Below, piece after piece: positions 2,149 through 21,822 of a stretch of 24,142 bases of DNA. Origin of the DNA: a virus (Duplodnaviria; Caudoviricetes); the IMG/VR virus record IMGVR_UViG_3300017764_000105, positions 1-24,142 of that record; one strand, given 5' to 3'. Positions within the stretch are counted from its first letter, which is position 1. Each line of letters starts with the position of its first letter. A program made the translations under genes and the position numbers. Below the pieces are notes generated by a model. That model did not search any database and had not been told where the DNA came from. It saw nothing but the letters and a program-made list of their open reading frames with translations.

Positions 2149-4752
2149 TTAGGTATCCCAGCGAAGTATGAAAGTTGTGTCAGTTTCATCTGACATTCTA
2201 ACAGGTTGTCCTAATTTACCAACCACTAATAATTCATAATTATCATCATATAAACCAATAGTAGTTACGTAAGGATTCCAAATAGAACCTGTAGCAAAAT
2301 TTGCTATATTTTCGTGCTCTTCATTTGTTATACATCTAGCCGAAACATTATTTGTAAAATTATATTCTTGTTCGTCTGCAGTACATTGGTATTCATTTTC
2401 AACTAAAGGTAGAGTGTTTTTAAAAGAAATAGATGAAGTTATATTATGATGTTTAAAATGATGGAAATAATGGGGATTTGTAATAGTAATTAATCCCATA
2501 CTATAAAATATATTACCTACTATAGGAGTACCTATATATTTTGATTCATAATAATTTTCTTCTATTTCACTATTTTTTAAAGCTCTAGGATAAATTGCAA
2601 TGTTTTGTAAGGATCCTGTGTAGAAGTTTTGTATTCCTCCTTGACATCCTATATACATGTTAGATTTATTTTGAGTTATTCCTAATTCTTTACCACATAT
2701 AGATCCCGATTTAATAGATTCTAATTCTGATACTTGTAATACTCCATCCACATATATACTCATTACTGATTGTGAATATTGGCATACTACATTATAAATA
2801 GAACCCGTTCCCACTGTTAAAGGTCCTGTTGAAACAGTAACTGGATCTAATCCATTACTTCTTCTAAAACATAAAGAATTATATGTTGAATTATTTTGTG
2901 TTACTGTTCTGCTTTGACCAGATGCTATTAAACTTGATACACTTGTGCAATTATTGGATATACTATCTATAAACTGTTGTGCTGTTAAATAATCTACACC
3001 ATGATAATTTTTAACTGGATCTGAATTCCACCCGGGGATTGTTGATGTTGATGGGATACTAGGATGACTAGAATTATCTAAAAATCCTAATAAAATATCT
3101 CCTGTAGTTGGTGGTGTTCCTATATTAGTGGGGTATAAAGTAGAAACAGGTCCATTTAAAACCCCATTATTATCCGTGAATGTATTTCCGGGTATTCCTA
3201 AAGTAGATAATGGTGGTGTTGTAGAAGTATCTGAGGTGAAATAATCAAATAGATCTTGATTTGATATTGATTGTAATGTAATTGATCCTGGAGTACTATT
3301 AGTATACTGACCTAAAGTATTATTCCAAACCCACCCAGAAGGTGCTTGTGTTTCTCTATTAAATTGATTTCCATATCCTGATAACCATGGACTAGGAGGT
3401 GAAGCAATAGCTACTGCTATTCCCCCCGTACAAGATATACTTGATGTTGTAATAGGAGAAGTTGCTACTTGTTGGGTAGTACATCCTTCATTAGATCCTG
3501 ATAAAAATATTTCAAAAGGATATTGAGGTTCAGATTCTATTTCTACTTCTTGATTTGCTCCTGATACATTTAAATTTAATGCTTTTATTGCTTTAGCTTC
3601 TAAAGAAGATGCATTTACTGTTTTTGTTTTGCTTTTTCCTATTATATGAAATTCAGAACTTGAAACATTTCCATCACATTTAAAAGGAGCAGGTTTTAAA
3701 TTAAATGTAATAGTAAAATCATCTCCTGGATTAAAATCAAACTTTTCATTATGAGGAGATCTTAAATAACTTCCTCCTTTTTTTCCATGACCTGCTACTA
3801 TTCCTGGGTCGTTTCTTTTTAATACATTTAAAGAATGAGGAGTTTGACAATGAAAATCCATAAATGTATGATGAGTATAATCTGTTTGGTTTCCTAATAT
3901 TATTTCACTAATTGAGTGAGAATGAGGGATAAGTCTATAATTAGGAAAATAGGGATATTTAGTAAATCTAATATTATTATAATCTACTAATCCATGATAG
4001 TAACTATCTTCATATACATCTTCCATACTGTATGCTGGTACTTTACATCCTGCACTATCAAATTCTGGTAAAGTAGAAAATAATCCTAAACCTTTAGGAT
4101 CATAATGTATTGAATGTGTAGTATAATCTGGTATATGCTCACCATGTTTTGTTTTAGTTAAATCTAAAAATCTATATGAATTTATAGGGTTAAGATAAAA
4201 AATTCTATCATCTTTGAAATATTCTGGATAGTTATAAGTTAAAGAATTAGGAAAAGATTCTGTAGTAAATGCTTGTGATCCTGATCCTAAATTTGTTTCT
4301 AAATGAATTATATTACCTAAACCATCATCTATAAATCTACCTGTTAGTTGTATTTTATTTCCTAAACTAGCTGTTGCTCTAAAATCTTTTACTTTAGTTA
4401 TTGTTTCTAATTGTAGAGATTTTTGTTTAATTTGAACTCCATACATGTTTTGGGGTATAGAATAAACATAAACTTCTTCATCTAATTGTCTATGTTGTTT
4501 TAAATAATGAACATTACCAAATTTATTAGCTACATCTACGGGATAATCCCCATAATATAAATGTTCTAGTTGTTTATGAGCACAAGTTGAAGCTCCATAT
4601 TCTTCTTTTGCACTTTGGCTCCATGAAGCTGTTACAAAATAAGTGTGTTTTATAGAGTCAGATTTACCTTTTAAGGTATAAGTGTACTGTTTATGTGCAT
4701 TAAAGGGTACAACCGCTATATCTGATGCCTTTAATTTCTTGTATACAAACAT
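2149..4752 (-). CDS. Virion/baseplate-associated structural protein with a LamG/concanavalin-like domain interrupted by an insert, and a tail-collar-like C-terminus
   Basis: LamG-like motifs FDFNPGDDFTITFNLKP, YNVVCQY..MSIYVDGVLQ, MYIG...FYTGSLQNIAIYPRAL..EI. C-terminal YVTTIGLYDDNYELLVVGKLGQP is paralogous to the 357 aa neighbour. Confidence 0.75.
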   Translation of the reverse strand: MFVYKKLKASDIAVVPFNAHKQYTYTLKGKSDSIKHTYFVTASWSQSAKEEYGASTCAHKQLEHLYYGDYPVDVANKFGNVHYLKQHRQLDEEVYVYSIPQNMYGVQIKQKSLQLETITKVKDFRATASLGNKIQLTGRFIDDGLGNIIHLETNLGSGSQAFTTESFPNSLTYNYPEYFKDDRIFYLNPINSYRFLDLTKTKHGEHIPDYTTHSIHYDPKGLGLFSTLPEFDSAGCKVPAYSMEDVYEDSYYHGLVDYNNIRFTKYPYFPNYRLIPHSHSISEIILGNQTDYTHHTFMDFHCQTPHSLNVLKRNDPGIVAGHGKKGGSYLRSPHNEKFDFNPGDDFTITFNLKPAPFKCDGNVSSSEFHIIGKSKTKTVNASSLEAKAIKALNLNVSGANQEVEIESEPQYPFEIFLSGSNEGCTTQQVATSPITTSSISCTGGIAVAIASPPSPWLSGYGNQFNRETQAPSGWVWNNTLGQYTNSTPGSITLQSISNQDLFDYFTSDTSTTPPLSTLGIPGNTFTDNNGVLNGPVSTLYPTNIGTPPTTGDILLGFLDNSSHPSIPSTSTIPGWNSDPVKNYHGVDYLTAQQFIDSISNNCTSVSSLIASGQSRTVTQNNSTYNSLCFRRSNGLDPVTVSTGPLTVGTGSIYNVVCQYSQSVMSIYVDGVLQVSELESIKSGSICGKELGITQNKSNMYIGCQGGIQNFYTGSLQNIAIYPRALKNSEIEENYYESKYIGTPIVGNIFYSMGLITITNPHYFHHFKHHNITSSISFKNTLPLVENEYQCTADEQEYNFTNNVSARCITNEEHENIANFATGSIWNPYVTTIGLYDDNYELLVVGKLGQPVRMSDETDTTFILRWDT

Positions 4753-6583: not shown

Positions 6584-9500
6584 TTAATAATCTTTACCCT
6601 TTATTCTTCTTTTTAATTTGTAAAACCATCCTCTTCTTTTTCTTTTCTTTAATTTTACTCTAGGGGGTAAATAAGTTCCTTTTTTAATTGATCTATCTTT
6701 ATATTTTGGTGCTTTTTCTTTTTCAATTAAACCTGCTTTACTTAAATAGTAATCTAAATTTGCTTTAATTCTAGGATTTAAAGTATCGGGTATAAGTATA
6801 AATCCTTTTTGGCCTACGCCCTGTGGTAGGTCTACTCCCTTATTTATGTCTGTTAATATAAAATTTGGTTTTTCTTCTGATTTAGAAATAGTCCATTTAT
6901 TTAAACCTGGCCATCCTTTTCTTTCTCTAAAGTCTATATATTTAGTTCCTGTGTAAAAATGTCTATAATTATTTCCATACATGTAAGCTGTCCAAACAGC
7001 TGCACTATTATATACCCAACTTCCATTTGTACCTCCTGTCCCATTAGGATCGTTTTGTCCCCCATTTCCATCATTTATAAATTGTATTCCACTAGTATCT
7101 CCTACTTCTACAAAAGGAGATCCATTCATAAATCTAGGAGCATTAATACCCCCTGCATATAATCCACCTATGGGACCATATCCACTCATTATTCCCTGAT
7201 AATCTGGTCTATTTGTGTCTTGTTTAGTCCAAGGATTACCTGTATCAGGATTAATTGGATTAGCTAAAGACCAAGACACTGCTGGTTCAGAATAATCATA
7301 CCATCCCATTCCTATTTCTGCTGCATCCCCCATTCCGGCTAATAAATTATGTGCGTTTCTTACTCCTACTTTTTCGGGTGTATTAGAATACATCATGCTT
7401 CCAAAAGTAACTAAAGGTCTAACATAATTTAAATAATAACTATAACTCCCTACGTTAGATGGATCTCCTGAAGTTGCATCTGCATAATTTAAAGAAGGAG
7501 TTCCAGGATATCCTGGTACGTTTCCATCTCTACGCTCTAAGTAAGGGTGGTCTTCTCTATGAAAACTTTGATTAAATGATTTATCAACAAATTTAGCTTC
7601 ATTAAGTGTTAAAATATATAAATCATCTTGTTTATGGCATTCATCCATAAATATTTTCATACTTGATGTAACATCTCCAGCACAACTTTCAGATACCCAC
7701 TTTATATTTTTTTCTCCTCCTTTACCAAACCACCAATCTGCTGATGGGTTTTTGTCATTTATTTCAAATGTTCCTGATAATACTCTTCCTAACATTTTAG
7801 TATTAGAACTATCTGCAGACATACCTCCTACTGGTCTATGTACTGGAAGAAATTTAAAAGTATAATATCTCATACCTCCTGGTAATGGATCTAATCCAAA
7901 AAAGTTACTTACTCCTGGACCTGAATTCCAACTACCCTCAATTCCTTTTTCTTGGTGTTTAGGAAAATCTAATTCATTTCTTCCAAAATCCATACCTGCT
8001 CTTTTAAAACCTCCAGAAAAGAAACCACCTTCTCCTCCTCCAATATCACTAGCTAAATAATAATAACCACCATCATTAGCATCAACTGGAGCTTTTCTAA
8101 ATTGAGCTCCCTCATTTATTTTTTCAGAACTTCCATGAGGGAATAAAGCTGGATTAGAGGTACCAACATGACCATGTCCAGTACTTGATAGATAACTTCC
8201 TCCGTTTAATTCAAAGTTTCTTCCTGTTCCTGGATAATGTCCTGAGGATGTATGATGAGCTGATTCTGTTGTGTAAGATGCTATTTCTGAAAAGTATCCT
8301 CTATTCCAATGTACACCATAACTTGATCTTAAATTATTTTCTTGATCATAATCTAATAATTTCATTCTAAAATCTGTAGACCAAGGAAAAGTAGACTGCA
8401 TTAAATTTTGGAATGTTCTGTCTTCTCCTTCTGATTTTATTTCTTGTACAAAGAAGGAATCATCAGTAGAATTAAATATATAAGCTTTTTCTAATTTAAG
8501 GTATGAAAAATCAGGACCTGGTCCTGGGAATACATCACTTTGTTGATAACCATACACTGTATTTCCAAAGAATACTGCATTTGAATAATTTTCAATTACT
8601 GGTGTTTTGCCATAAGTTAAATCTCCATCTGATTCTCTTTCAGGAATAATTGCTGATCTAGAAACAAAAGTTTGATTATAACCCCATGTTGAATCAATAT
8701 TAAGTTGAGCAACACCATTTACTGGAGTTCCATCTATGTCTACATAACTAAAAGGACCTTGATGAACATATTCTCTTTCTTCATATCTAATTTGATATTC
8801 TGAAGATAATCTATTATTTCCTGTTACCTGTTCATTTTGTCCTGGATCTATTCCTAAAAAGAAAGGACCCCCATTTAATCCTTTAGGATCTATTGGGTTT
8901 AATTTTATATGAGTAGGAATTAAGTCAAAAGTAGATTGTTTTCTTTCTATTTTTTCTGGTTCTTGAGTATATGAGTTTATTTTGTAAAAAGAAGTTGGTA
9001 CTAAAGGTACATCATATATTTTAGGTCCAAAAGGTGGATAAGGTAAAGATTTATTTGCTTTTTGATAAGTTTGATCTGTTCCTGCAGCAGTAGTTGCTCC
9101 TCCGGGTCCACAAGATTTTGGTGGGTATTGTTCTCTACCTGCATAATCTTTAAATTCTGATTGCCATTGACAAGATCTTTGAGTTATTCCAAATAATGTT
9201 GTTGCAATACCATTATCTATTCTTTTTTCAAAAGGATTACCTACTTTATATGTGTTATTTAAAGTTACATTAAAAGAAGAAGTTAATATAAATTGTAATC
9301 CATCTATACTGGTATCTAAATTAGGATTTTGAATAGGACCTATTTCTTTTCCTTCATCCATTTCATCTGTATATTCATTGTAATATAAAGATCTTAATTT
9401 GGATCCTTCCCATCTTGCTCTAGTCCAACCTTTTTGATTTAAAAGACCATCATTAAAACATACATTATAAAATTTACCAAATGTAGGTACAGGTTGTACA

Positions 9501-9814
9501 CTAGGATTAGCTGGTGGTGCTGGGGGTGTAGGTGTAGTTTTTCCTGGAGAAGTACCTGGTATATGAACAGGATCTCCTGTTGGAGGGTTGACTGGATCTC
9601 CTGTTGTATTAACAATTACATCAGGGAAGCAATCTATAGAAGATGTTTGATATATTGTTGTATTTGTAGGTGTAGTAGGAGTAGGAGGGATTACACCTGT
9701 GTATTCCCAATAATTTTTACCAAAATCCCAACTCCACCCCGCAGGAGGTGTTGATTCTCTATTAGTTTGGCTTCCCCAACTATTATTCCATACGTTTTGT
9801 GGTACCTGTGCCAT
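6584..9814 (-). CDS. Putative virion structural protein (1076 aa) with N-terminal Trp-rich module, Pro/Thr linker and highly basic C-terminus
   Basis: Long ORF in the structural cluster; Gly/Asn/Tyr-rich. Shares a Trp-rich module with the 867 aa protein. No enzymatic motif recognised. Confidence 0.65.
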   Translation of the reverse strand: MAQVPQNVWNNSWGSQTNRESTPPAGWSWDFGKNYWEYTGVIPPTPTTPTNTTIYQTSSIDCFPDVIVNTTGDPVNPPTGDPVHIPGTSPGKTTPTPPAPPANPSVQPVPTFGKFYNVCFNDGLLNQKGWTRARWEGSKLRSLYYNEYTDEMDEGKEIGPIQNPNLDTSIDGLQFILTSSFNVTLNNTYKVGNPFEKRIDNGIATTLFGITQRSCQWQSEFKDYAGREQYPPKSCGPGGATTAAGTDQTYQKANKSLPYPPFGPKIYDVPLVPTSFYKINSYTQEPEKIERKQSTFDLIPTHIKLNPIDPKGLNGGPFFLGIDPGQNEQVTGNNRLSSEYQIRYEEREYVHQGPFSYVDIDGTPVNGVAQLNIDSTWGYNQTFVSRSAIIPERESDGDLTYGKTPVIENYSNAVFFGNTVYGYQQSDVFPGPGPDFSYLKLEKAYIFNSTDDSFFVQEIKSEGEDRTFQNLMQSTFPWSTDFRMKLLDYDQENNLRSSYGVHWNRGYFSEIASYTTESAHHTSSGHYPGTGRNFELNGGSYLSSTGHGHVGTSNPALFPHGSSEKINEGAQFRKAPVDANDGGYYYLASDIGGGEGGFFSGGFKRAGMDFGRNELDFPKHQEKGIEGSWNSGPGVSNFFGLDPLPGGMRYYTFKFLPVHRPVGGMSADSSNTKMLGRVLSGTFEINDKNPSADWWFGKGGEKNIKWVSESCAGDVTSSMKIFMDECHKQDDLYILTLNEAKFVDKSFNQSFHREDHPYLERRDGNVPGYPGTPSLNYADATSGDPSNVGSYSYYLNYVRPLVTFGSMMYSNTPEKVGVRNAHNLLAGMGDAAEIGMGWYDYSEPAVSWSLANPINPDTGNPWTKQDTNRPDYQGIMSGYGPIGGLYAGGINAPRFMNGSPFVEVGDTSGIQFINDGNGGQNDPNGTGGTNGSWVYNSAAVWTAYMYGNNYRHFYTGTKYIDFRERKGWPGLNKWTISKSEEKPNFILTDINKGVDLPQGVGQKGFILIPDTLNPRIKANLDYYLSKAGLIEKEKAPKYKDRSIKKGTYLPPRVKLKKRKRRGWFYKLKRRIKGKDY
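9570..9606. repeat. Short direct repeat GGATCTCCTGTTG x2 (24-nt period), encoding TGDPV twice in a Pro/Thr linker
   Basis: ggatctcctgttg at 9570-9582 and 9594-9606; protein TTGDPVNPPTGDPVH. Confidence 0.6.
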
Positions 9815-9846: not shown

Positions 9847-12800
9847 TTAACTACTATAACTACTTCCTCCACTTCCCCCACTAGTTGTTGTTGTTGATGA
9901 TTTTTGAACGCTAACAGTTTGAGTACCTTTTATTGATACACCAAGTCCTGATCCTTTTGAGGGATTAACTGGATTTATTCCTACCGTAGGATTTATACCT
10001 GGGTTTGTAGGATCATTACCAAAATTAAATTGTGGTGGTTTAGATACATAATAGTATTCTTTACTAACTATACAATCTACATAATTACCATATAATGGAT
10101 CAAAATTGTCATATAAAGTAATATAAGGATTACATTCATCTGAAGCATATTTGCTTTGACTCATGTATAAATTATCACTTGCTGTTAGAGCTCCCATCCA
10201 AGGGAAATAATTTTCATTTACTTTATCTGATATATTAATACATGCTTCGTAGTGTTTAACTTCTCCTTCTAAATCTAAATAAGGTAAAAGATGAGCTTCT
10301 TTTTCTAATCTTTCAAATGTTGGTATTTGTCTTGCAAATTTTTGTCTTTCTAAATAATGTGGTTCAATTAATAAACCAGTTTTTAAATTAGCTTTTGCTG
10401 GAACAAATTGTTCTACCATTTTAAATAAAGTATGATCTATATATTGAATTAATTTTATATAATCAAAGAAATTTTGTCTATAGCTGTTTAAATATTTTTT
10501 AAAGTATTTTAATTTTAATTCTTCTAAATCTGGATATTCTGCTAAACTTTGGTGTGTTGGATCTCCTATATAATCATCCATTCTAAATGCTCCTAAAGTA
10601 TAAACAATATCTTCATTTATTTCTGCTTGTGGTGAGAAAAATACTCCTAAATCATTATAATCTAAAGGTTGTCTGTCTAATGTAGATGTTTCTGTTTTTA
10701 TATCAAAAGATAATATACTTCTATCTATAGATCCCGAATCTATTCTGACTTTTTCACTTGTAGTAGAAATACCTACAGTGTCTGGTGTTAAATGTCTATG
10801 AGTTTCATATACTTCATTAAATGATTGACTTGTAATAGAACTAGATATACTTGAAGATTCATATAAACTAAATAATGGATGTGGATTGAAATTTTGAATT
10901 ATTCCTAACCCATTATTATTATAAGAAGCAGAATCTACTTTATTATTACTTCCTAAAGGTAATCTTAAATGAACATTTTCCCAAGATGAACTAACAGTAT
11001 TACCTGCATATTGGAAAGGATCTAAAGCATGTTTAGTAAGAGTATCATGTGTTAAGAAATCTTTAACATGGTATTTAATTTCTTGTAAAGATCCTGAATA
11101 TGTAAAACTATTTACACTACCACTTGTATTACTATTAGTAGGAACCCCACAAAAATATGCTGTTGATGCTGGAAGTGTATTATTAGCTAAATTATAAGCG
11201 GTATCTCCAAAAGATGCTGCTCTTTCATATTCACTAAAAGTAGCTGAAGCTGTTAGATGGGTAACATGACCTAAGAAATTAGATTGATACGCTCCAAAAT
11301 ATACTTCACTATTACTTCCTGATTCTCCTTTTGTTCCTATAAATATATTCCAAAAGGCTCCATTATAAACAGGGAATATATCTGTACTTCCTACTACTGA
11401 TCCATTTTTATATAAATCTAATGAACCAAAGTTTCTAAAATCATCCGAAGAAGAAACATCACTACCTGTGTATGGTCTTAATATTAAGTGAGGAGTTGTT
11501 TGTGGTTGTGATTCATTATATAAACTAAATAAATGTGAAGCTGTTGGTATTGTTATAACAGGATCACAACATGCTTCTAAAGATGAATATTCTGGTTTGT
11601 CTAATCTGTGGGGTTTAATTCTAAATTCTACCATTTTAGCAGAACTTGAAGGAATTATATCGAAAGTACTAGCAGAAACAAAATTAATAATTGTTTCATA
11701 AGTATCTGCTGAACATTCACATCTACTACTAGATACTTCTCCTGCTACTAAACATCCTACTTCTATAGACGATGATTCAGGACAACAAATGCATGATTCA
11801 AATTCTATGTCTCCATCTAATGATTCTCCTCCCGTTGTTTCAGGAATACAAACACAAGCTCCTCCGTCTATTTGTCCATATAATGGTATATTTCCTGCTG
11901 TACTTTGTGTTTCTTCCGTTACTATAGGATCTCCAGGTATATCTTCACAATTAGCTGCTTGGTAATTAACTATAATATTAGCGCTATAAGTTATTTCTAA
12001 AGTAGAATTAAAATAATTTAATATATCTGTTATGTCATCTTGATAAGTAAATATATCTACTTGTTGTTGTGTTGATCCTGTTGTTGTTTCATTACAAGGA
12101 CAAGTTTCTACTTTTGTTTCAATTGAATATCTAACTATTGTTCCCTCATATCTTGGATGGTTACTTTCTAAAGTATTAATTGTATTTAATACTTGGGCTA
12201 AAGTCATTGTATTATCAAACTGATTTGCATCGCCTTCAGCATTACAAGCTGCATTTAAATGACCTAGGAAACCATCCCAATCTTGAGCTGTTGGTGATGC
12301 TTGATTAGGAGTTCCATTTTGGGGTTGAGTCATTATAGTTCCAAAATACCCATTTTGAGCAAACTGGGTTGTTCCTGTGTCTAAAAAAGATTGACAAACT
12401 AATTGGAATTCTTTAATATATCTTTGTGCATTTGTAGCACATGAATGTCCTGCAATAGGTGATGTTGTATCTTCAAAGAAATAATTTGCTGCTGTCTGAC
12501 TAGGAGCATTATCAATTAACCATTGAGTATGAGAAGCAACTGTTCCTGCAGGAGAGGTAGTAGATTCAAATATTTCATAAAACATTGATTGTGTTTCATT
12601 TGTATTGCCTGTTATATTTGACCACGTTCCTGAATTACAAGGTTCAGTATAATTTTGAACTGTTGTACCTGGGATAGTTGTGAAACTTAAACTATTTAAA
12701 GTATCAATAAATGTATGCCAATTAGTATAAGTACCTCCTGCACTTGAGAAGGTTAAAGAAGGTAATGATGTGAAAGTAAAATCAGTTACAAAACAATATA

Positions 12801-15800
12801 CTCCTCCTCCTGCTGGTAAATTTTCACCTGTACAATTATTATAAGGTGCTAATGTTTCATCTAAAGTATCATTTGTAAAATAATATCCATTTAAGTTTTG
12901 TCCATGTCCATTATCTATTAACCAATTTAATTGTTGTGTTGCGTTTCCTATTACATTTGATCCAGCAGCACTATTATTAAATATTTGAGATTGTGCGTCA
13001 AATATATTAATAGGTGTACCAGGAGTTGTTGTGGTTATTACTCCAGGTGTGCTTAATGTTGCTACTGAGCTTGATAATTGATTCCATGTAGTATATGTAC
13101 TTATGCTAGCTCCATTATTATTTAAAAAATCAATACCTGTTAATCCATCTTCTTGGATTTTTTGATTTAAAAAAGTACTCCAACTTCCATAAAAAGTAGA
13201 ATCGGATGAATATTGATTAGTTGTTGATGAAGGATCTATTAAAGCATTTTGATAAAATCCTTCAACTGTATATAAACCATATTGGTTTATTTCTGTTGAA
13301 GTAGAACCTGTACATAATATATTTACTTCTACTTCTGTTATTGTTTCTGTTATGCATAAATCTGAAGTAGATACAAATTCATCAAGATCTACAGCTAATT
13401 GTGTTGAAGACATATTTGGGAAAGATACATTAATTCCCCAACCATATTTATCTAATTCCCCAAATCCTTGATCAAAATAAGGGTTTGTAGTTTTTAATGC
13501 GTTGTAAGTAACTGTCCCACCCCATGGAGCTACAAGTCCTGCATAAATACCACCATTAAGTGTATCTACAGTTCCAGGAACACCAAAACTCATAATTGTA
13601 GATGGGGGATTAGCTAATCTTCCATCATTATTATCTCCACTAGTTATTGATGCTAGTGCTGATAATATTGTTTGTGAATATAAAGAAGTAAAATTCTTAG
13701 GGGCACTTTCATTAGGAGTTGGATACATGAAACATGCTACATTTCCTGTTGTATAATTGTTGTAAAGAGTTGTATATTCAGTCCAATCATCTTGGAAAGA
13801 ATCAAAACTTGTACTTTTAGGTTCATCATCACCAAATAGAGGATCCAAATAATCAATAGTATTAACATTAGGATTAGTAGTTAAATTTCCTATAGGTCCC
13901 TCTGTCCAATCATTAACATATCTATTATCAGATTCATCTATAAAACAAATAGCTAAAACGTCTCCTGTTGGAGGTCCTAATGTTGATAAAGTATTAGAAG
14001 ATGCCCATGTACCACTATATACATTTACAGTTGGATCTGCCTCCATTAAAGCTAATGTTGGTTCGATTTTATAATGGGCATTACTAAGATTTCCACCACC
14101 ATTATAATACTTAGTAGTATCTCCAAAACCTTCTAACATTCCAGTTCCCCATTTTAACCATCTTTCTCTTGTTGCAAATATATGATAAACAGTTTTATTA
14201 TATCCTTGGTTTTGTTGTAAATCTAAAACCCAATCATTTACAGCATTAAATGCTGTTACTTTAGCAGCATTCCCCATTGAAGTATTATCATAAAACACAT
14301 ATAAATCTGCATTAACAGAACAGTCTTCTTCTTCCGTTGTTATTTCTTGGAATGATTGATCTACTAATTGAAATTTTAAAGTATTTAAATTTGATGCTGC
14401 AAAACCATTTGCAGAATCAGAAATAAATTGCATGTATTCATTATAATTTGAAAATACTCCTTGTGGTTGAGGGATGGTAAATTCACCTGTAGTTGAATCA
14501 GGAAAATATTGAATTCCCGTAGTTGTTGATATTAAAGGATCTGTAAAGTTTAAAATTCCATTAGTTACTTCTACTATTATAGAATTAGAAGTATAATCTA
14601 TTGAAGTTACAGTTAAAGTACACCCAGAATTATTTGATTGTATAAGAGAATCTCCTACAATAAAAGGTTCATTACCTTGGTCAAAACTAGATCCAGTTAT
14701 AGATATAATTGTATTATTATTAAGTACTAAATTATTAGGACAAACATCTGCACATATACATTCATCTACTGCTATAGGACCTTCTATTTGAGATTCTAAT
14801 CTTGTATCTCCTAAAGTTAAAGCATATCCTAAATTTTGACCTTCTGTTATATAATCTGTGTATTTTGAAAAAGAAGTTGAACTAATTGAAGGATTCATAA
14901 AAAACTCATCAACAGTAAATAACATGTTTCCATTTTCATCTAAACATATATTTGGATCAGTATATTGTGTTACTGAATAATCTGCACATAAAGTTTCACT
15001 TAAAACTTTTCCTAAAGCATTTTCAAATTCAATACCAGTAAATGCATTTTCTTGGACTGCTTCAGAAGTTACAACCCACCCATAATTTTGTAAACCACCA
15101 TACCCATATTGTGGATCATATCCTGTAGGAGGTGAGAAACTTGTTTCATTTTGCCAACTTGAAATAGCATAAGGGTTTGTGTTAGACCCACCACTACTAT
15201 CTAATGCATTAAGATATATAGCATTATTAGCAGGTGGAGTAGTTGATAAGTACTCATGGCCTGTTTCTAACATACCTGGGTTAGCTGCACTACCCGTTAG
15301 TATAGAACTCCATACATGTAAAGGAAAAGCTAATTGTGTAGTTTGAAAAACAGTTGTGCCATCTACTCCTAAATATCTATTAGATGAGGGATCTGAAAGG
15401 CTTAAACCTTCAGGAGCAGAAGGATACATAAAATTAATTAAATCTCCTTGATTTTCATATTCATTTGCTGTTCTGTCTATGTTTTCAAAATAGGTTTTAA
15501 TAAATAATTCATAATCTACTCTCCAATCTTTTTGACCTTGACTAGTACCATCTTGTATTTTAGCTTGTGTTAAACCTACATTACCAAATGTTGGATTTGT
15601 TGAAGTAGATGATTGGTGGTATTGTCTTTTTCCACTATTAGATGTTTCTGAAGATTCATCATAAAAATTAAATACTAAAGCTTTATCTGTTGCATTTTGT
15701 AATGATGGGGCAGGTCCTCTCCAAGTCCATGATGTTCCCCCAAATGATCCTGCTGAGTTAGGTACTTCATCATCATACATTCCATTACCATCATTAATAA

Positions 15801-18800
15801 CTGATTTTACAGGAACTACTTGTCCCTGAATTACTATTGTTCCAGTTTCAACAAATTGATATATTTCTTTAGATCTAGTATTACCTGTTCCATTTTTGAC
15901 AAGTTTATGCCATATATGACTCCCCCCAAAGGCTTTTTCACCTCCTGTAATGTTACTTTGATTAGAATTCCAATAACCTGATACACCTGCTTGTTTTGAT
16001 ATATTATCATTATCACTATGAATAGTAGTAATAGAACCAAAACCACCATTTTGTAAGTGATCTCCAATATTTGTAAAAGGTAATCTAGCACAATCTAACC
16101 ATCTTTCATAAGAATTAACCATATGATAAACAGTACCTGTAAAATTAGCTCCTTGTTCTGCTACCCAATTTTCCACAGTTTCTACTACATTTTGGAATAC
16201 TGTTGCTGTCATTGAAGTACCATCATAAAAACAGTATATTGTTGCATCTAAAGGGCAAGTTTCTTGGAATGTTTGGGTTAAACTATCTGGGTCAACAGGA
16301 AATTTAAATCCATCTACTGCTATATTTTGTATATTATTTGTTTGTTCAGAATAATATTCTAAGAAATCAACCATACCTGTATTTCCGGATCCAGGAGTAG
16401 GAAAACTACCATCAGATGTTAATGGATTTGTTATTAAAGTTTTATGTTGGCAAGATCCTTCAAAAGATCCTGTAATTAATGCTGCTGTTAAATTTGAAAA
16501 ATTAGTAGGAGGTGTTTCAATACCATGCCCATCTACATTTAATTGATTTACAAATGTTTGATAATTAGTATATAAAACAGTGTCTAAAGGTAATATAGAT
16601 TGGTCTTTTCTAAAACCAACAACTCTTCTAATAGGTAAACCATTAGATCCTATACATTGATCTTCTACAAAAGTTCCCCAAGGTAAAGGTTCGTCTGATT
16701 CAAAATAGTAATCATCTATATTTTGACCATAAAAACCATTATCAAAATCAGTAAAATAATCTACAAAATCTGCTGATGTTTCAAATGATCCATTTCCTTC
16801 TGGATTAATAACCATTCCATCACAAGAGCCTGTTGTAGTTGTTATTTCTGTTTTTTCACAAAGTCCAGTACACTCATTAAATAAATAACCTTCTGGACAT
16901 TCATTTGTTTGTGTATTAAATTCTCCTCCCCCACATGTTGTGCTTGTAATAGAATTAATAGTAATTGTTACGTCAGCTTGGTCAAATTGTTCTGTTCCTA
17001 GAGTGCTATAAAAATGCACTCCTCCTTGATCTACTACACCTGGTGTATGTAAGTCAGTTGCTGTAAAAGTAACATTAAATGTATCATTGTTGCAATTAGT
17101 TCCTCCATTAAACATCTCCTCAATATAACAGCTACCTAGAGTAGTAGTAGTTCCTCCCCAATTGTTATTTGGATTTCTATCAAAAAGTAAAAGTCCTTTA
17201 CTAGAATTTGAACCATCATTACTAATTGTATAATTTATAGTATATTCACATCCAATAACTAAATTATGAAAAGAATTTATCCATCTTCTCCAATTAGGAT
17301 AAGCAGGATCGTTAGTGTTTGTACTAGTTGGATAATTATTTTTAATGGTCATTTGGTTTGGACCATCTACTTGCCAATAATCTGTGTCTCCACTACCTAT
17401 AGTAAAATCAACATAAGGTGTAAGTTGATTAGGACCTGGATCACTAGTAAATATGATATTGTTTTTATAAGCGTCTTCTAAATCAGTGTATGTTATGCCA
17501 TTTAATGTAATACCATTATTATCTATGTTTTGAAAATCAGCATCTGAATTAAAAGTACCTATTGGGAAAGGTCCTACTATATCACATCCAAAGGATGCTA
17601 CATTTTCATCATTTTTTCCTTCTAAAACTATTGTGTTATCTCCTGCTATTAAATTTACTTTATAAACCCACCAATAATTAAAATTACTAGTTGAACTTGT
17701 ATCTTTTTCAATTAACATTTCACCATTTACAGCAAATCTTATTCTATTATCTCCTGCTAGACCTATTAAATATTCTCCATCAGCAGGTACATTTATACAT
17801 TTTGAAAATCCTATCCATTGGTTTGTAGGATTCATTAAAGTGTTATTTCCTAACCATGGATTAGTTCCATCCCAAACTCCTATATTATTTAACCTTCCAT
17901 CATTTTGACTAGTACCCCCAAAATAAGTGTTTGACTGATCAATATTATATGTAGTAGTTGTTGTAGTATCTGAATAAAATTTTACTCCAAACTTTCCATA
18001 ATTAGAATTTTGTGCTCCTTGTCCTAAAGGTATACTAGAATTAACTGTTGGTAATTGAGTTAAAACATTTGATGTAGTAATAGTACCTGTTGTAAATTCA
18101 TTACACCCACAAGATGAAGATGCAGGAAAATGAGTTATAATATCTGATGCTTTTAATTCAGACCATTTTGTATCTACATTTATTCCTGGTATGTTTGAAT
18201 TTATTATACCATCAGCATTTAACGCGTTAATAAACGTGGTATAATTGGTATAACACGCGTCACTTGTGCTTGACACATCACTACAATTAGAACTACAATA
18301 ATTTAAAATTTCGCTTGGATCTAAATAACCTTGTTTATTTGATGCCTGAATAGTTGTACTAGTTACAAAAATTTGGTTATTAGGATGTGAAAAAACATAA
18401 TCACTATTAGTAGGACCATAGTTGTAGGCATTACCATCGGAAGTTACGTAAGCACTTCCATCATAAATGTGTGTGCCTGCTGCATAAGGAATTGCTTGGG
18501 CTAAATAATTATCATAAGTAGAATCTCCAGTAGATCCTTGAACTATATAATCTGTAAATTGTGTAGTAGTAACACTAAAAGATAAATTAGCACCATCTAC
18601 ATAGAAGTCTAAAACTGCACTACAAGAATTATTAGATGTTGTTACTATTTCTCCTCCTGTTGAGTCTGTACCCCCTATAAGCCCACTTGCTGTTATAGAC
18701 ATAAATGCGGCATCTCCCCCCATATTAAGGGCAGAACCTTGTATAGGATTGTTAGTATTAGATCCTGTTACTACTGTTGTTATTTCTAATGCATATCCAT

Positions 18801-21800
18801 CTCTTTGAGGGACTGAGTCTAAATTTATAGCATTAAAATTGGGGTTGGCATTTATTGCATTTGTAAGATCTTGACCTATTGAATTTACTGAACCTCCTCC
18901 TGTTAAAGTAAAAGTATGAGCAGTACCATCTGCTGATGTTAATATTACTGTTTCTCCATTATATAAACTATTATTTCCCCCAACTGTATTAGGAATAGTT
19001 ATTGTACCTACTGCTGTTGTTCCTGGAGAAACTGTTGTTGGAGTTACTATTGTTTTTATATTTACACAATCATCTGCTTTAAAACATTCTATAACAAATA
19101 AACCATAATCATTTATTCCTTTACATTGAAATTCCCCTAAATATAAAGGAATAGCTGACGGAGTTAGTGATTCAAAACTATATAAAGAGATATCTATATC
19201 AGTATATCCATTTGTTACGTCTGTAACAAAATCCATAAATTCTGCTTCATCCTGAAATAATCCATTATTTATTAGATTACCTGATCCATCTGCTGCTATT
19301 CCGTTTTCTATTAATGTTTTACTTGAACATGTATTAATACCAGGTATAACTGTTGTAATTGATGTTGAATTGTTTGTTCCTCCTCCTGCATTAAAATCTA
19401 CTTTTGTTAAAAATTCAACTTCAGGAAATTGTTGTGGGTTACCACAAGCTGGAGTTAATGTATCTTCAAATAATGTACCTTTTATTTCTGTATTACCATC
19501 TATACCTTGTAGATGTTGGGTTATCATTATTTCAATATCTAAATTGTATTTTTCATGAGCAGGATCATATAAATCTTCTCTTACAAAAACAGAAGCTGAA
19601 AATAATGTATGTGCGTCTATAGCTCCTGCTAGACTTTGAGCTGTTTCTAAACCACTTTCTCCATGTAATATAAAATCATAATTAGAAGTAAAAGTATGAA
19701 CAGATAAATCTGTGGCTGTTAATTCTACTGTTTTAGGAAAAGGTGCATTAAATAAATCTTTTACAGCTCCTATAGAAAATATTATTTTACCCTCTGATCT
19801 ATTTGGTTTACTTTCTACTGTTCCTGTGAATAAAGAAGAAGAAGATGCCCATGGTGCTTTTATGAAATATCCTTCTAAATCTGAACTTCCCGCTAGGGCT
19901 CTTGAGAATTTTTCATAATTAAATGTTTTATAAGTAGTTTCATCTGTTGTAGGTCCTCCATATTCTTTTATATTTAATATAGTTTCAGGAACCCCATAAC
20001 AATTCATAAGAGCTTTTATTCCTCTTTCTGTTCCTTTTGTTTTTAAAAGATAAGGTAAATTATGATATAATCTTTTCCAAACTTCTTTTGTAATATCTCC
20101 TTTAGGCATTGAACTACCTCCATTATCACATGTTACTAAAGAAGAAGTTATCATAGTTTGTCCTTCAGGGGCTTGATATGTCCCAAAAGAACCAGCCTTA
20201 TTTGCAGAAGTTCCTATTATATATTCAAATAATTCTTCATTTTCAAATTGATCAAAAGCTTTTATTCCTAAACTGCTTAAAGCAGTAAATACTAAATCTT
20301 TTGAAATACCTTTTTTAAGAGAACTATTAGCATTTCTAATTTCTGTAATGTGGTCTATATATAACCATATTTGGTCAAAATAATGACCAACCATATTTGT
20401 AAAGGTTACATAATTTTCATTTTCTTCTCTTTCGGCAATATGCTCAGGTATTGTTCTAATTAAACTATGTTTATTAGCTCCATCAAATCTAGAAGCAGAT
20501 AATATTTGTCCTCCATAATCTATATTTAATTCATTTGTACTTCCAAACCATTCAACTGCTTCTGAGGAAGTAGTAGGTCTTAAATTATAAGGTTTAAGAA
20601 ATACTTCACAGTCAGATAATCCTACTTGAAGCCAATAAGAATCTGGTTGTAAAGTAGAACCTGTTACTTGTAGAGTTCCTATACCAAAATCAGGTACTTT
20701 AGGCCATGCATATGGATGAAATTCATAATATAAAAATCTTTCATAATTATCAAAATTACTTTTTATTTTTGATATTTTAGATTCAATTAAATTTTTATTA
20801 CCTGTAACTGTAGCAGAACCTGATATACTACCTTGGATTGTATTTATTTCATCTATTTGTCTTTGGTATAATTCTAATAGTTCTAACTTATATTTAAAGT
20901 TTTTTAATCTTTCTTCAGCACTACCAAAATGTGTAAAATTTTCAAAATGGAATCCTGTTTCTAAAGATCCTGTAGATGTATTTGTATAATCTATAGATAA
21001 TTCTATACTCCCACTTAAATGATTTAATACTGTGTATAAAGAAGATGAATTTGTATTAGAGACAAAGTCATTAAAATTTTTATATTTAGAAGGTATAGAA
21101 TCATTTAAACGTGTATCTATTCTAAAATTAGGTCCTTTTATATCAATACCAAACTCTGGTAAATCAGGTTCCCCTAAATCTATAGAAAATTCTATTGGTT
21201 CTACTATATCTTCTACTATTCTAAACTTTTCACCTACTTCTAAGTCTAAAGGTAAAGGTTCATATAATTTAATACCTATTTCTCCCTCTTGGTATATAAT
21301 ATTTGTTGCTAAAACATTATTATTTTCTCCAAAATTTAAAGTAAAATCTCTAAAAAAATTAGTTGATGCTAATCCTCTTGTAAAATCACCAATATGTTTT
21401 TCTATATTAGCATTACCTATTTGGTCTGATATAAATTCACATTTTAATTCTAATTTAGAAGGAGATAGTTCTTTTATTATAAATACTTTATTTAAAGTAT
21501 CTATTATTTTTGCTCTTTGTAATCTATAAACAACTATATATTGACCTGTTGTGTAACCTAAGTCTCCTACTTTTTTATAAGGATCTACAAATATTGTATT
21601 AGTTAAAGTAGAAGCATCGCTTCCATCATCTTCTATATTTTCAGGAACAGTATATTCTAAATAATTTTCTATAGAAGTTATATGACGACCCCCCATATCA
21701 AACATATGGAATTCAACATAATCATTTTCTCTTCCAAATTTTCTACCTACATTAAGAGGATTTAAAGATTCTGCATCTATTTGAGATATTTTTGGAATTA

Positions 21801-21822
21801 TATTTTTATTATCTATACTCAT
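9847..21822 (-). CDS. Giant baseplate wedge-like protein (3991 aa) carrying a ~2,700 aa nested multi-domain adhesin-like insertion
   Basis: RLYHNLPYLLKTKGTERGIKALMNCYGVP...IKEYGG resembles the KGT motif of P2 gpI / T4 gp7-type wedge proteins. C-terminal LamG-like motifs (VEFRIKP, FWNIFI, YSGSLQEIKY) and QFVPAKANLKTGLLIEPH. The centre contains Cys-bracketed repeats plus VWA-like, PA14-like and CBM-like domains. Confidence 0.75.
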   Translation of the reverse strand: MSIDNKNIIPKISQIDAESLNPLNVGRKFGRENDYVEFHMFDMGGRHITSIENYLEYTVPENIEDDGSDASTLTNTIFVDPYKKVGDLGYTTGQYIVVYRLQRAKIIDTLNKVFIIKELSPSKLELKCEFISDQIGNANIEKHIGDFTRGLASTNFFRDFTLNFGENNNVLATNIIYQEGEIGIKLYEPLPLDLEVGEKFRIVEDIVEPIEFSIDLGEPDLPEFGIDIKGPNFRIDTRLNDSIPSKYKNFNDFVSNTNSSSLYTVLNHLSGSIELSIDYTNTSTGSLETGFHFENFTHFGSAEERLKNFKYKLELLELYQRQIDEINTIQGSISGSATVTGNKNLIESKISKIKSNFDNYERFLYYEFHPYAWPKVPDFGIGTLQVTGSTLQPDSYWLQVGLSDCEVFLKPYNLRPTTSSEAVEWFGSTNELNIDYGGQILSASRFDGANKHSLIRTIPEHIAEREENENYVTFTNMVGHYFDQIWLYIDHITEIRNANSSLKKGISKDLVFTALSSLGIKAFDQFENEELFEYIIGTSANKAGSFGTYQAPEGQTMITSSLVTCDNGGSSMPKGDITKEVWKRLYHNLPYLLKTKGTERGIKALMNCYGVPETILNIKEYGGPTTDETTYKTFNYEKFSRALAGSSDLEGYFIKAPWASSSSLFTGTVESKPNRSEGKIIFSIGAVKDLFNAPFPKTVELTATDLSVHTFTSNYDFILHGESGLETAQSLAGAIDAHTLFSASVFVREDLYDPAHEKYNLDIEIMITQHLQGIDGNTEIKGTLFEDTLTPACGNPQQFPEVEFLTKVDFNAGGGTNNSTSITTVIPGINTCSSKTLIENGIAADGSGNLINNGLFQDEAEFMDFVTDVTNGYTDIDISLYSFESLTPSAIPLYLGEFQCKGINDYGLFVIECFKADDCVNIKTIVTPTTVSPGTTAVGTITIPNTVGGNNSLYNGETVILTSADGTAHTFTLTGGGSVNSIGQDLTNAINANPNFNAINLDSVPQRDGYALEITTVVTGSNTNNPIQGSALNMGGDAAFMSITASGLIGGTDSTGGEIVTTSNNSCSAVLDFYVDGANLSFSVTTTQFTDYIVQGSTGDSTYDNYLAQAIPYAAGTHIYDGSAYVTSDGNAYNYGPTNSDYVFSHPNNQIFVTSTTIQASNKQGYLDPSEILNYCSSNCSDVSSTSDACYTNYTTFINALNADGIINSNIPGINVDTKWSELKASDIITHFPASSSCGCNEFTTGTITTSNVLTQLPTVNSSIPLGQGAQNSNYGKFGVKFYSDTTTTTTYNIDQSNTYFGGTSQNDGRLNNIGVWDGTNPWLGNNTLMNPTNQWIGFSKCINVPADGEYLIGLAGDNRIRFAVNGEMLIEKDTSSTSNFNYWWVYKVNLIAGDNTIVLEGKNDENVASFGCDIVGPFPIGTFNSDADFQNIDNNGITLNGITYTDLEDAYKNNIIFTSDPGPNQLTPYVDFTIGSGDTDYWQVDGPNQMTIKNNYPTSTNTNDPAYPNWRRWINSFHNLVIGCEYTINYTISNDGSNSSKGLLLFDRNPNNNWGGTTTTLGSCYIEEMFNGGTNCNNDTFNVTFTATDLHTPGVVDQGGVHFYSTLGTEQFDQADVTITINSITSTTCGGGEFNTQTNECPEGYLFNECTGLCEKTEITTTTGSCDGMVINPEGNGSFETSADFVDYFTDFDNGFYGQNIDDYYFESDEPLPWGTFVEDQCIGSNGLPIRRVVGFRKDQSILPLDTVLYTNYQTFVNQLNVDGHGIETPPTNFSNLTAALITGSFEGSCQHKTLITNPLTSDGSFPTPGSGNTGMVDFLEYYSEQTNNIQNIAVDGFKFPVDPDSLTQTFQETCPLDATIYCFYDGTSMTATVFQNVVETVENWVAEQGANFTGTVYHMVNSYERWLDCARLPFTNIGDHLQNGGFGSITTIHSDNDNISKQAGVSGYWNSNQSNITGGEKAFGGSHIWHKLVKNGTGNTRSKEIYQFVETGTIVIQGQVVPVKSVINDGNGMYDDEVPNSAGSFGGTSWTWRGPAPSLQNATDKALVFNFYDESSETSNSGKRQYHQSSTSTNPTFGNVGLTQAKIQDGTSQGQKDWRVDYELFIKTYFENIDRTANEYENQGDLINFMYPSAPEGLSLSDPSSNRYLGVDGTTVFQTTQLAFPLHVWSSILTGSAANPGMLETGHEYLSTTPPANNAIYLNALDSSGGSNTNPYAISSWQNETSFSPPTGYDPQYGYGGLQNYGWVVTSEAVQENAFTGIEFENALGKVLSETLCADYSVTQYTDPNICLDENGNMLFTVDEFFMNPSISSTSFSKYTDYITEGQNLGYALTLGDTRLESQIEGPIAVDECICADVCPNNLVLNNNTIISITGSSFDQGNEPFIVGDSLIQSNNSGCTLTVTSIDYTSNSIIVEVTNGILNFTDPLISTTTGIQYFPDSTTGEFTIPQPQGVFSNYNEYMQFISDSANGFAASNLNTLKFQLVDQSFQEITTEEEDCSVNADLYVFYDNTSMGNAAKVTAFNAVNDWVLDLQQNQGYNKTVYHIFATRERWLKWGTGMLEGFGDTTKYYNGGGNLSNAHYKIEPTLALMEADPTVNVYSGTWASSNTLSTLGPPTGDVLAICFIDESDNRYVNDWTEGPIGNLTTNPNVNTIDYLDPLFGDDEPKSTSFDSFQDDWTEYTTLYNNYTTGNVACFMYPTPNESAPKNFTSLYSQTILSALASITSGDNNDGRLANPPSTIMSFGVPGTVDTLNGGIYAGLVAPWGGTVTYNALKTTNPYFDQGFGELDKYGWGINVSFPNMSSTQLAVDLDEFVSTSDLCITETITEVEVNILCTGSTSTEINQYGLYTVEGFYQNALIDPSSTTNQYSSDSTFYGSWSTFLNQKIQEDGLTGIDFLNNNGASISTYTTWNQLSSSVATLSTPGVITTTTPGTPINIFDAQSQIFNNSAAGSNVIGNATQQLNWLIDNGHGQNLNGYYFTNDTLDETLAPYNNCTGENLPAGGGVYCFVTDFTFTSLPSLTFSSAGGTYTNWHTFIDTLNSLSFTTIPGTTVQNYTEPCNSGTWSNITGNTNETQSMFYEIFESTTSPAGTVASHTQWLIDNAPSQTAANYFFEDTTSPIAGHSCATNAQRYIKEFQLVCQSFLDTGTTQFAQNGYFGTIMTQPQNGTPNQASPTAQDWDGFLGHLNAACNAEGDANQFDNTMTLAQVLNTINTLESNHPRYEGTIVRYSIETKVETCPCNETTTGSTQQQVDIFTYQDDITDILNYFNSTLEITYSANIIVNYQAANCEDIPGDPIVTEETQSTAGNIPLYGQIDGGACVCIPETTGGESLDGDIEFESCICCPESSSIEVGCLVAGEVSSSRCECSADTYETIINFVSASTFDIIPSSSAKMVEFRIKPHRLDKPEYSSLEACCDPVITIPTASHLFSLYNESQPQTTPHLILRPYTGSDVSSSDDFRNFGSLDLYKNGSVVGSTDIFPVYNGAFWNIFIGTKGESGSNSEVYFGAYQSNFLGHVTHLTASATFSEYERAASFGDTAYNLANNTLPASTAYFCGVPTNSNTSGSVNSFTYSGSLQEIKYHVKDFLTHDTLTKHALDPFQYAGNTVSSSWENVHLRLPLGSNNKVDSASYNNNGLGIIQNFNPHPLFSLYESSSISSSITSQSFNEVYETHRHLTPDTVGISTTSEKVRIDSGSIDRSILSFDIKTETSTLDRQPLDYNDLGVFFSPQAEINEDIVYTLGAFRMDDYIGDPTHQSLAEYPDLEELKLKYFKKYLNSYRQNFFDYIKLIQYIDHTLFKMVEQFVPAKANLKTGLLIEPHYLERQKFARQIPTFERLEKEAHLLPYLDLEGEVKHYEACINISDKVNENYFPWMGALTASDNLYMSQSKYASDECNPYITLYDNFDPLYGNYVDCIVSKEYYYVSKPPQFNFGNDPTNPGINPTVGINPVNPSKGSGLGVSIKGTQTVSVQKSSTTTTSGGSGGSSYSS
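11713..19329 (-). repeat. Six diverged, nested protein-level repeats (hub modules R1-R6) within the 3991 aa ORF
   Basis: Recurring ordered motifs: opening C; (D/E)F.DY.(T/S)D..NG or QWLIDN; Y.F; mid C; V..F; YTNY.TF.N.L; closing G.(I/V)...CxC. Copies open at about 19329, 16824, 16452, 14742, 13020 and 12639. Confidence 0.75.

Follow-up and report, generated by a model that had tools for sequence, protein, structure and literature searches.

Probable nesting of Cys-bracketed hub domains in the large insert of a likely phage baseplate protein

How does a phage protein hold some 2,700 residues within one of its loops, and how are these residues arranged? The question is raised by the virus record IMGVR_UViG_3300017764_000105 of IMG/VR (Duplodnaviria; Caudoviricetes), whose 24,142 nucleotides constitute the window analyzed here, and in particular by P0001, an open reading frame (ORF) listed on the minus strand at positions 9847-21822 and encoding 3,991 residues. 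An earlier note on this DNA had parsed the protein as a set of balanced brackets: six copies of a repeated unit, which we term hubs R1 to R6, would be interrupted at their loops (sockets) by foreign domains (passengers) or by one another, and three hubs left open would be completed at the far end of the insert by short segments containing a CxC motif (closers c1 to c3). The motifs on which this parse was built were all found where it had placed them. All the window features given below lie on the minus strand.

The outermost bracket is formed by the motifs YFIKAPW, whose W658 ends at 19849, and KMVEFRIKP, whose K3396 starts at 11637, with 2,737 residues between them. Scanning viral contigs with the conserved N-terminal part of the protein yielded 43 loci; in 16 of these only 11-31 residues separate the YFIKxPW-type and KxVEFRIKP-type motifs, and in five the distance is 2,697-3,125 residues, whereas the other 22 gave no motif match (in three the insert begins and the contig then ends; the remaining 19 are diverged or truncated). 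These distances identify the outer bracket as a true insertion into one loop, as the earlier note had it. Furthermore, the ~12-kb frame is open in all 10 long database proteins and independent assemblies agree on it, ruling out an assembly artefact.

Within the insert, a self-comparison by sliding phmmer detected R1 and R2 as related (E 4e-8): residues 849-920 of R1 match residues 1673-1743 of R2, and R1 resumes at 1188-1232 in register with R2. Eleven long orthologs were aligned, a set without the redundant or partial sequences P0006, P0010, P0014, P0016-P0019, L002, L006 and L050, and the pieces of each hub were rejoined in scripts before profile-profile alignment. The rejoined hubs matched one another with probabilities of 98% (R1-R2), 97.6% (R1-R4), 89% (R2-R4), 88% (R2-R3) and 96% (R5-R6), compared to at most 2% for non-hub controls, and the alignments among R1-R4 mostly reached the last column. 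A profile search of 1.84 billion representatives returned nine matches, namely four orthologs, four compact hubs in unrelated proteins and P0021, the last of which proved a repeat artefact and was dropped; L060, a chance motif match, was dropped as well. The ESM Atlas gave nothing usable for a compact hub or for P0020. Using a profile of 132 positions made from 17 hubs of other proteins, R6 was recovered complete, and R2 (positions 7-106, E 5.5e-7) and R5 both ended at position 106. Against this outside family R2, R3, R5 and R6 scored 75-98% and eight of nine controls no more than 0.5%; the ninth, the CBM-like passenger (9%), is an impure control, since some orthologs have a hub at this place. 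The six repeated hubs therefore hold up, their self-similarity being beyond chance and four of them matching an independent family. Five complete hubs, set inside Cys-rich repeats together with two VWA-like domains, were found in a 2,948-residue protein of another large phage (L063:4661-13507). We conclude that the hub is an unannotated domain family, as are the U and S-type domains described below; standard pipelines miss these families because the domains are split. Next to the 2,948-residue protein, a neighbour of 1,740 residues (L063:13540-18762) carries two hubs and a Hint domain.

The insert opens with S1 (residues 659-831; 19330..19848), an S-type domain placed in tandem before R1 and absent from the earlier note's parse, which aligns with S2 and with the S copies of orthologs and has no significant library match. 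The first part of R1 (C832-C919; 19066..19329, C832 being at 19329), recognized by self-phmmer and in the rejoined alignment, is followed by S2 in its first socket (residues 920-1066; 18625..19065) and by U, an unnamed alpha/beta passenger between C1067 and C1180 (18283..18624), and the second part (C1190-C1240; 18103..18255) resumes at CYTNYTTFINAL (18255), in register with R2 residues 1748-1787. A PA14-type module with a socket of its own comes next (residues 1241-1655; 16858..18102); its passenger (residues ~1466-1630; 16933..17427) is called CBM-like by resemblance. R2, lacking its last strand (C1667-S1790; 16453..16824, C1667 being at 16824), is identified by the outside-hub profile, and the complete R3 (C1791-C2357; 14752..16452) by the outside family and the rejoined alignment. 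R3 is split by VWA-like domain 1 (C1856-C2279; 14986..16257), which is homologous to VWA-like domain 2 (VWA2) and to the two such domains of the L063 protein. The first parts of R4 (C2361-2500; 14323..14742, C2361 being at 14742) hold a small beta-barrel in the N-loop socket (residues ~2371-2448; 14479..14712) and precede VWA2 (C2501-C2823; 13354..14322), after which the rejoined alignment places the third part of R4 (residues 2824-2925; 13048..13353). The first part of R5 (residues 2939-3052; 12667..13008), supported by the outside-hub profile and an ortholog model, then encloses the complete R6 (C3062-C3243; 12094..12639) ahead of its own closing helix and strand (residues 3255-3294; 11941..12060).

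The domain names used in the earlier note fared unevenly. PA14 is confirmed by Pfam PF07691 (E 2e-5; 24.9 bits on residues 1241-1651, profile positions 37-97 of 147, with a cut-off of 24; 21.1 bits with the whole protein), and Pfam and PHROGs found nothing besides it on the 3,991-residue protein; VWA, CBM, sheath and LamG are resemblances lacking a confirmed library match. Canonical VWA domains carry the metal ion-dependent adhesion site motif D-x-S-x-S. Both VWA-like copies have D-x-T-S-M in place of this motif, none of 11 members matched Pfam, no PDB sequence match was obtained, and the VWA label for domain 1 is thus one that we presume. Likewise, S1 and S2 had no PDB sequence match under E 0.29, so that homology to sheath domains was not detected, and the best PHROG of the S type is a tail fibre family (2/11 members, E 0.003).

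If R1, R2 and R4 are open where the parse leaves them open, something must supply their last strands. The protein has four instances of the motif G-x-[IV]-x4-C-x-C. One of them ends R3, and the other three share a stretch of 55 residues at the far end of the insert: c1 (GQIDGGACVC; 11848..11877), c2 (GDIEFESCIC; 11785..11814) and c3 (GEVSSSRCEC; 11713..11742), separated by linkers of 11 and 14 residues and predicted to be the last strands of R4, R2 and, least securely, R1. The motif is retained in all 11 aligned orthologs (c1 in 10), and the c3 of P0015 reads GEIDISTCDC. When appended to three scaffolds, c1 and c2 added 5-9 bits, like R3's own last strand, and 0-2 of 120 random segments did as well, while the residues directly downstream of R1 and R2 added none. 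In a position-specific scoring matrix (PSSM), c2 and c3 ranked high. R5's own closer also scores poorly in the scaffold and PSSM tests, indicating that these tests miss true cases. R5 moreover lacks both its first Cys and the second Cys of its CxC, a paired absence that fits pairing of the first and middle Cys with the CxC. The closers are thus probably hub last strands. Their order of R4, R2 and R1 derives from a non-crossing assumption and the short linkers, and it is paralleled by conservation (R1>R2>R4: 0.73, 0.66, 0.55; c3>c2>c1: 0.79, 0.72, 0.64), a parallel confounded by position. As hub last strands, c1 and c2 stand best, and c3 on R1 stands least well, having one of three templates behind it.

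For predicted structure we ran AlphaFold on L047 from R4 to the closers (717 residues, 12 sequences), a run that returned no contacts. The model (predicted template modelling score 0.34) placed the barrel, the first part of R5, R6 and the closing helix and strand of R5 mostly at a predicted local distance difference test (pLDDT) value of 70-89, with strands in the Thr-rich flanks; the barrel copy itself ranged over 58-82. R5 and R6 have three helices each by DSSP, and the model supports, rather than displays, R6 lying inside R5. Fold searches with this model gave barrel matches only (the pyruvate-kinase barrel, which is a widespread fold, at Z 6-7) and barely probed the hub fold. U from an ortholog folded alone at pLDDT 70-92, and its fold search found no clear match (best Z 3.1). 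That the rejoined hubs share a domain holds by sequence alignment; the support from the model concerns R6 inside R5.

Relatives provide a further view of the arrangement, as the sockets vary while their flanks stay constant. The R1 socket measures 257-286 or 122-124 residues, the R2 N-loop 20-23 or 153, the R4 middle socket 306-371, 21 or 617-650, and the R5 socket 280-287 or 94-97; in one clade the R4 barrel is doubled in tandem (socket of 90 versus 163-170 residues). S2 is missing from R1 in the clade of L053, L054, L006 and P0015, which carries two S domains after R1 instead, and the linkers between the closers are unchanged by this N-terminal addition. The PA14 socket holds the CBM-like domain in five of 16 orthologs compared and a complete hub in the others that were read through, and the R2 N-loop of L046 and P0011 holds an extra complete hub, which in L046 is 58% identical over 128 residues to a hub in the unrelated P0022. 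VWA2 and its two flanking Cys are absent together from L047, and R6 is missing from three of the 11 aligned orthologs. Identity is mosaic, in that R6 of P0016 reaches 69% where others have 29-35%, and L048 has 96% in U but 25% in VWA-like domain 1; the closers are 83-100% identical in the near clade and 75% in P0013, whereas passengers range from no match to near-identical, in differing combinations.

Orthologs therefore do not present a fixed linear domain series, which the earlier note had named as the outcome fatal to its proposal, but change passengers between hub halves. Its expectation of different nesting trees is borne out at the leaves, where passengers are gained, lost and swapped, and not at the trunk: R1>R2>R4>R5 is constant in every full-length long ortholog found, as are the three closers, so growth of the tree through its trunk finds no support. 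The claim of growth by insertion rather than tandem addition was overstated, since tandem neighbours inside sockets are equally evident (S1+R1, S2+U, PA14+R2 and R3+R4, besides the tandem pairs of S domains and of barrels in one clade). Branching is present as well, R4 having three sockets and R1 and R2 two each. Socket borders bear no long exact DNA repeats, with only 60-86% diverged coding similarity among the 20 largest of 36 families, and thus no dedicated recombinase or repeat-driven mechanism is seen.

Some further variants were observed at these sockets. In L007:8681-20656 (residues ~2690-3320), L053 and P0015, ~620-650 residues replace VWA2 in the R4 middle socket; by eye they comprise a further hub containing a barrel, with weak profile support (8 bits). 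L047:347-12142 has ~270 extra residues within VWA-like domain 1 (residues ~1945-2210), indicating that passengers too can have sockets. P0016 (residues ~180-200) seems to lack the beginning of VWA2 with the frame kept, owing to a deletion or an assembly error.

The protein that hosts the insert is an ortholog of gp109 of the Flavobacterium phage immuto (Immutovirus; YP_010114574.1) and of a protein of the Microcystis phage Mel-JY01 (WWT39511.1), both hypothetical and ~31% identical over the backbone; sequence match and synteny place P0001 (9847..21822) in a baseplate gene module. Its N-terminal conserved backbone (residues 1-638; 19909..21822) is 31% identical to immuto gp109 over residues 16-638, and the match resumes, seven codons later in gp109, at the C-terminal conserved backbone (residue 3693 to ~3870; 10213..10746). 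The LamG-like host domain lies between these parts, as a first segment ending in YFIKAPW (residues ~639-658; 19849..19908) and a remainder from residue 3396 to ~3640 (10903..11637). The two are contiguous in plain relatives, so that residues ~650 and ~3400 do join as the earlier note expected; the name LamG has behind it a weak PF13385 match in one of 19 plain orthologs (E 0.064), and hhalign gave 0.2%. Since gp109 skips it, the domain hosting the arm is itself dispensable, which adds one level below the earlier parse. In L001, a near-identical contig, baseplate-wedge genes lie three and four genes upstream of the ortholog (phrog_261, E 4e-16; phrog_219, E 2e-20); these gp25-type and gp6-type genes adjoin in the module, and immuto has the same order. 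By gene order, the protein probably belongs to the baseplate.

To summarize, with moderate confidence we regard the insert as a nested-hub mosaic, likely a branched arm on a probable baseplate protein that carries exchangeable binding modules for host or particle surfaces. At the level of sequence, it is an insertion that contains six hubs and their passengers, in sockets that differ between relatives. A single chain with nested, bracket-balanced hubs and branching sockets is supported in the same way, the order R1 > R2 > R4 > R5 > R6 with R3 as a side branch is likely, and the fold of R5 and R6 is predicted by the model. The hub is predicted to be an alpha/beta domain of ~130-180 residues whose N and C ends lie together and which ends in a strand and CxC; the CxC Cys would pair with its first and middle Cys, and the four may bind metal. 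Two-stranded stalks rich in Thr, often with two paired Cys at their foot, would join the passengers to the hub loops. The chain would descend through R1, R2, R4 and R5 to R6, laying side branches as it goes, the inner modules would finish folding first, and the chain would return through the three closers and their short linkers, giving R4, R2 and R1 in turn their missing last strand, with disulfides forming only after lysis. Recombination between related phages and genes would swap the passengers while trunk and closers stay, and at the rim of the baseplate the arm would offer a number of binding modules. Nesting, bracket balance and branching stand from the earlier idea of a tree-like receptor-binding appendage; receptor binding, like closer docking, the disulfides, the virion location and adhesion, is what we infer.

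Several results weigh against this reading. In the L047 model R4, all closers and residues 617-717 fell below pLDDT 50; in a compact R1 from L053 U alone folded and R1 remained below 50; no model has any of the three closers docked; and the closure of R5 is read from confidence and secondary structure, contacts not having been returned. For c3, 25, 21 and 2 of 120 random segments were as good on the three scaffolds, and on R1 it beat background with the R4 template only (1/100; 68 and 45 of 100 for the other two). The PSSM did not single out c1 (58th percentile), the profiles are silent on which hub each closer serves, and co-divergence of closers and hubs gave no pair assignment for R1 or R2. 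Direct matches between R1-R4 and R5-R6 stayed below 10%, the two groups being joined only via the outside family, to which R1 and R4 scored 10-51% over the second half only. No full-length relative lacking R1, R2, R3, R4, R5 or a closer was found, nor was an arm of intermediate size. Finally, no homology to T4 gp7 emerged: hhalign gave 0.4% over 15 columns, four sub-profiles did not exceed shuffles, and no PHROG or PDB match was obtained, so that the baseplate label depends on gene order. The sole T4 gp7 alignment pairs C-terminal RLxDxIGxPR motifs (residues ~3759-3771 with T4 gp7 1009-1023), suggestive at most.

The weakness of c3 bears directly on a shallower nest, in which R1 is closed locally by its own CxC (PASSSCGC, residues 1233-1240; absent from the earlier note), so that R1, the PA14 module and R2 follow one another as tandem units of the LamG-like loop, the c3 region with its four Cys (3347-3370) makes up a small separate knot, and R2>R4>R5>R6 is still nested. 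We consider this unlikely, even though the CxC at 1238-1240 is invariant in 11/11 orthologs and lies as far past R1's last helix as that of R3, c3 fits the outside family weakly, and the Cys count balances both ways: the local segment never rose above background (97, 82 and 106 of 120; 68-92 of 100; PSSM 31st versus 90th percentile) and has a Pro at a conserved hydrophobic position, c3 retains G-x-[IV]-x4-CxC in 11/11, and the L053 model has no strand at the local segment, though R1 is unfolded in that model. Wedge proteins are present in several copies, which counts for another arrangement, in which the closers are hub last strands that pair out of order or between chains by domain swapping, giving an interlocked oligomer instead of a tree-like arm. 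Any closer completes any hub in the profile tests, and the recursively inserted HABAS domains of SI3 swap elements (PMC11515920). We nonetheless give this arrangement a low probability, as linkers of 11 and 14 residues, unchanged when S domains are added, suit a return path past stems with adjacent ends, and the order of conservation agrees with last-in-first-out closing.

The nest could also be as described and have no part in receptor binding, serving as a spacer, decoy or decoration (drag, shielding, particle sticking) or consisting of near-neutral passengers. The absence of the arm from most orthologs, PA14 being alone in having a library match, the non-canonical VWA-like motif and the presence of hubs themselves in leaf sockets are compatible with such a role, to which we assign a similarly small chance. 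Against it, receptor-binding proteins vary at their tips in mosaic fashion, and the arm too varies mostly at its tips and as a mosaic; the frame stays open in every long database protein, and a second large phage protein has these modules as well. Least probable by far is a plain linear domain series or an assembly artefact, the closers being Cys-rich linkers that arose by chance. AlphaFold did leave R1 and R4 unfolded, but independent assemblies share the open frame, the split hubs when rejoined align over their full length, and passengers drop out between the halves of a hub with clean borders; these ortholog indels largely refute the linear series. We therefore retain the nested-hub mosaic. 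A broader idea, tentative and somewhat short of even chances, is that the hub is a previously undescribed mobile multi-socket adaptor fold whose last strand and Cys staples let it take inserts of >2,000 residues, its own copies included, and with which aquatic phages build branched, single-chain adhesive trees in plug-and-socket fashion, trading hubs and passengers across genomes and unrelated genes.

Other inserts and neighbouring genes were noted in passing. In the plain-type ortholog L040:8699-15472, which is apparently fused to the next gene of the module, other inserts lie in different LamG-like loops, by eye as a domain within a domain, and the S-domain profile did not detect the inner domain. 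In the window, the 867-residue ORF at 2149-4752 has a LamG domain, supported by Pfam, that is interrupted by a Cys-flanked insert of ~190 residues (2905-3483), which L056 and L057 share and L051, L054 and L058 lack; this insert looked hub-like by eye, received no score from the hub profile and was rejected as a hub. The 1,076-residue ORF at 6584-9814, without a Pfam or PHROG match, is rich in Pro and Thr at its N-terminus and in Lys and Arg at its C-terminus. As in Mel-JY01, next to the structural module come a DNA primase (150-1073) and a SegE-type GIY-YIG protein (1690-2124).

Should the fold be confirmed, the insert would be a natural scaffold that branches for multivalent display from one chain. 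It would also permit a test of how a domain reaches its fold with the final strand 1,500-2,100 residues behind the rest, and it suggests socket swapping in a baseplate side arm as a route to host-range variation besides tail-fibre tip exchange. In the literature searched, with partial coverage, we found neither this protein described nor any phage adhesin with recursive self-nesting, and the earlier note, which knew of no such adhesin, agrees with this, yet the type of architecture has precedents (PMC13114784, PMC11515920 and PMC6088184). One is SI3 of the cyanobacterial RNA polymerase beta' subunit (RpoC2), built of recursively inserted HABAS (sandwich-barrel hybrid) motifs (PMC13114784; PMC11515920): according to these accounts, one family is inserted into its own copies to a depth of about six levels, its nodes branch, and it has expanded in particular lineages. 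The window protein likewise has six levels below the backbone (LamG-like, R1, R2, R4, R5 and R6), and recursive insertion of one family over several levels is found here by sequence, model support being confined to R6 in R5. Unlike SI3, the present nest sits in a phage structural protein, its unit contains helices, is bracketed by Cys and has no library match, in place of a beta-sheet HABAS motif, the insert is ~2,700 residues versus ~640, and the hubs bear foreign passengers that differ between close relatives. The 2026 survey of domain insertions presents the six RNA polymerase levels as its showcase of complexity and finds inserts usually smaller than their hosts (PMC13114784); here, in contrast, hosts of ~140 residues would carry inserts of up to ~2,100.

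Closer to phage, the contractile tail sheath has 'Russian doll' domains I-IV that arose by successive insertions, the outer ones least conserved (PMC6088184). It resembles the present case as a phage tail protein with successive insertions, and differs in that the sheath, as described there, has no more than four domains, all different and in a single unbranched chain, with no family nested in itself. Immuto gp109 and the Mel-JY01 protein share the orthologous backbone and the gene order after the baseplate genes, but gp109 lacks the whole LamG-like domain and the arm, and Mel-JY01 has ~200 residues there and no arm. The unannotated Cys-rich repeat proteins L063:4661-13507, P0020 and P0022-P0025 share the hub and VWA-like families and likewise set hubs within a host module; they differ in that their hubs are complete and sit one level deep in small Cys-rich repeats, as beads on a string. 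Recursive nesting is thus known already, from RNA polymerase SI3 and from tail sheaths, and what is new here is the multi-socket, Cys-bracketed, mobile hub.

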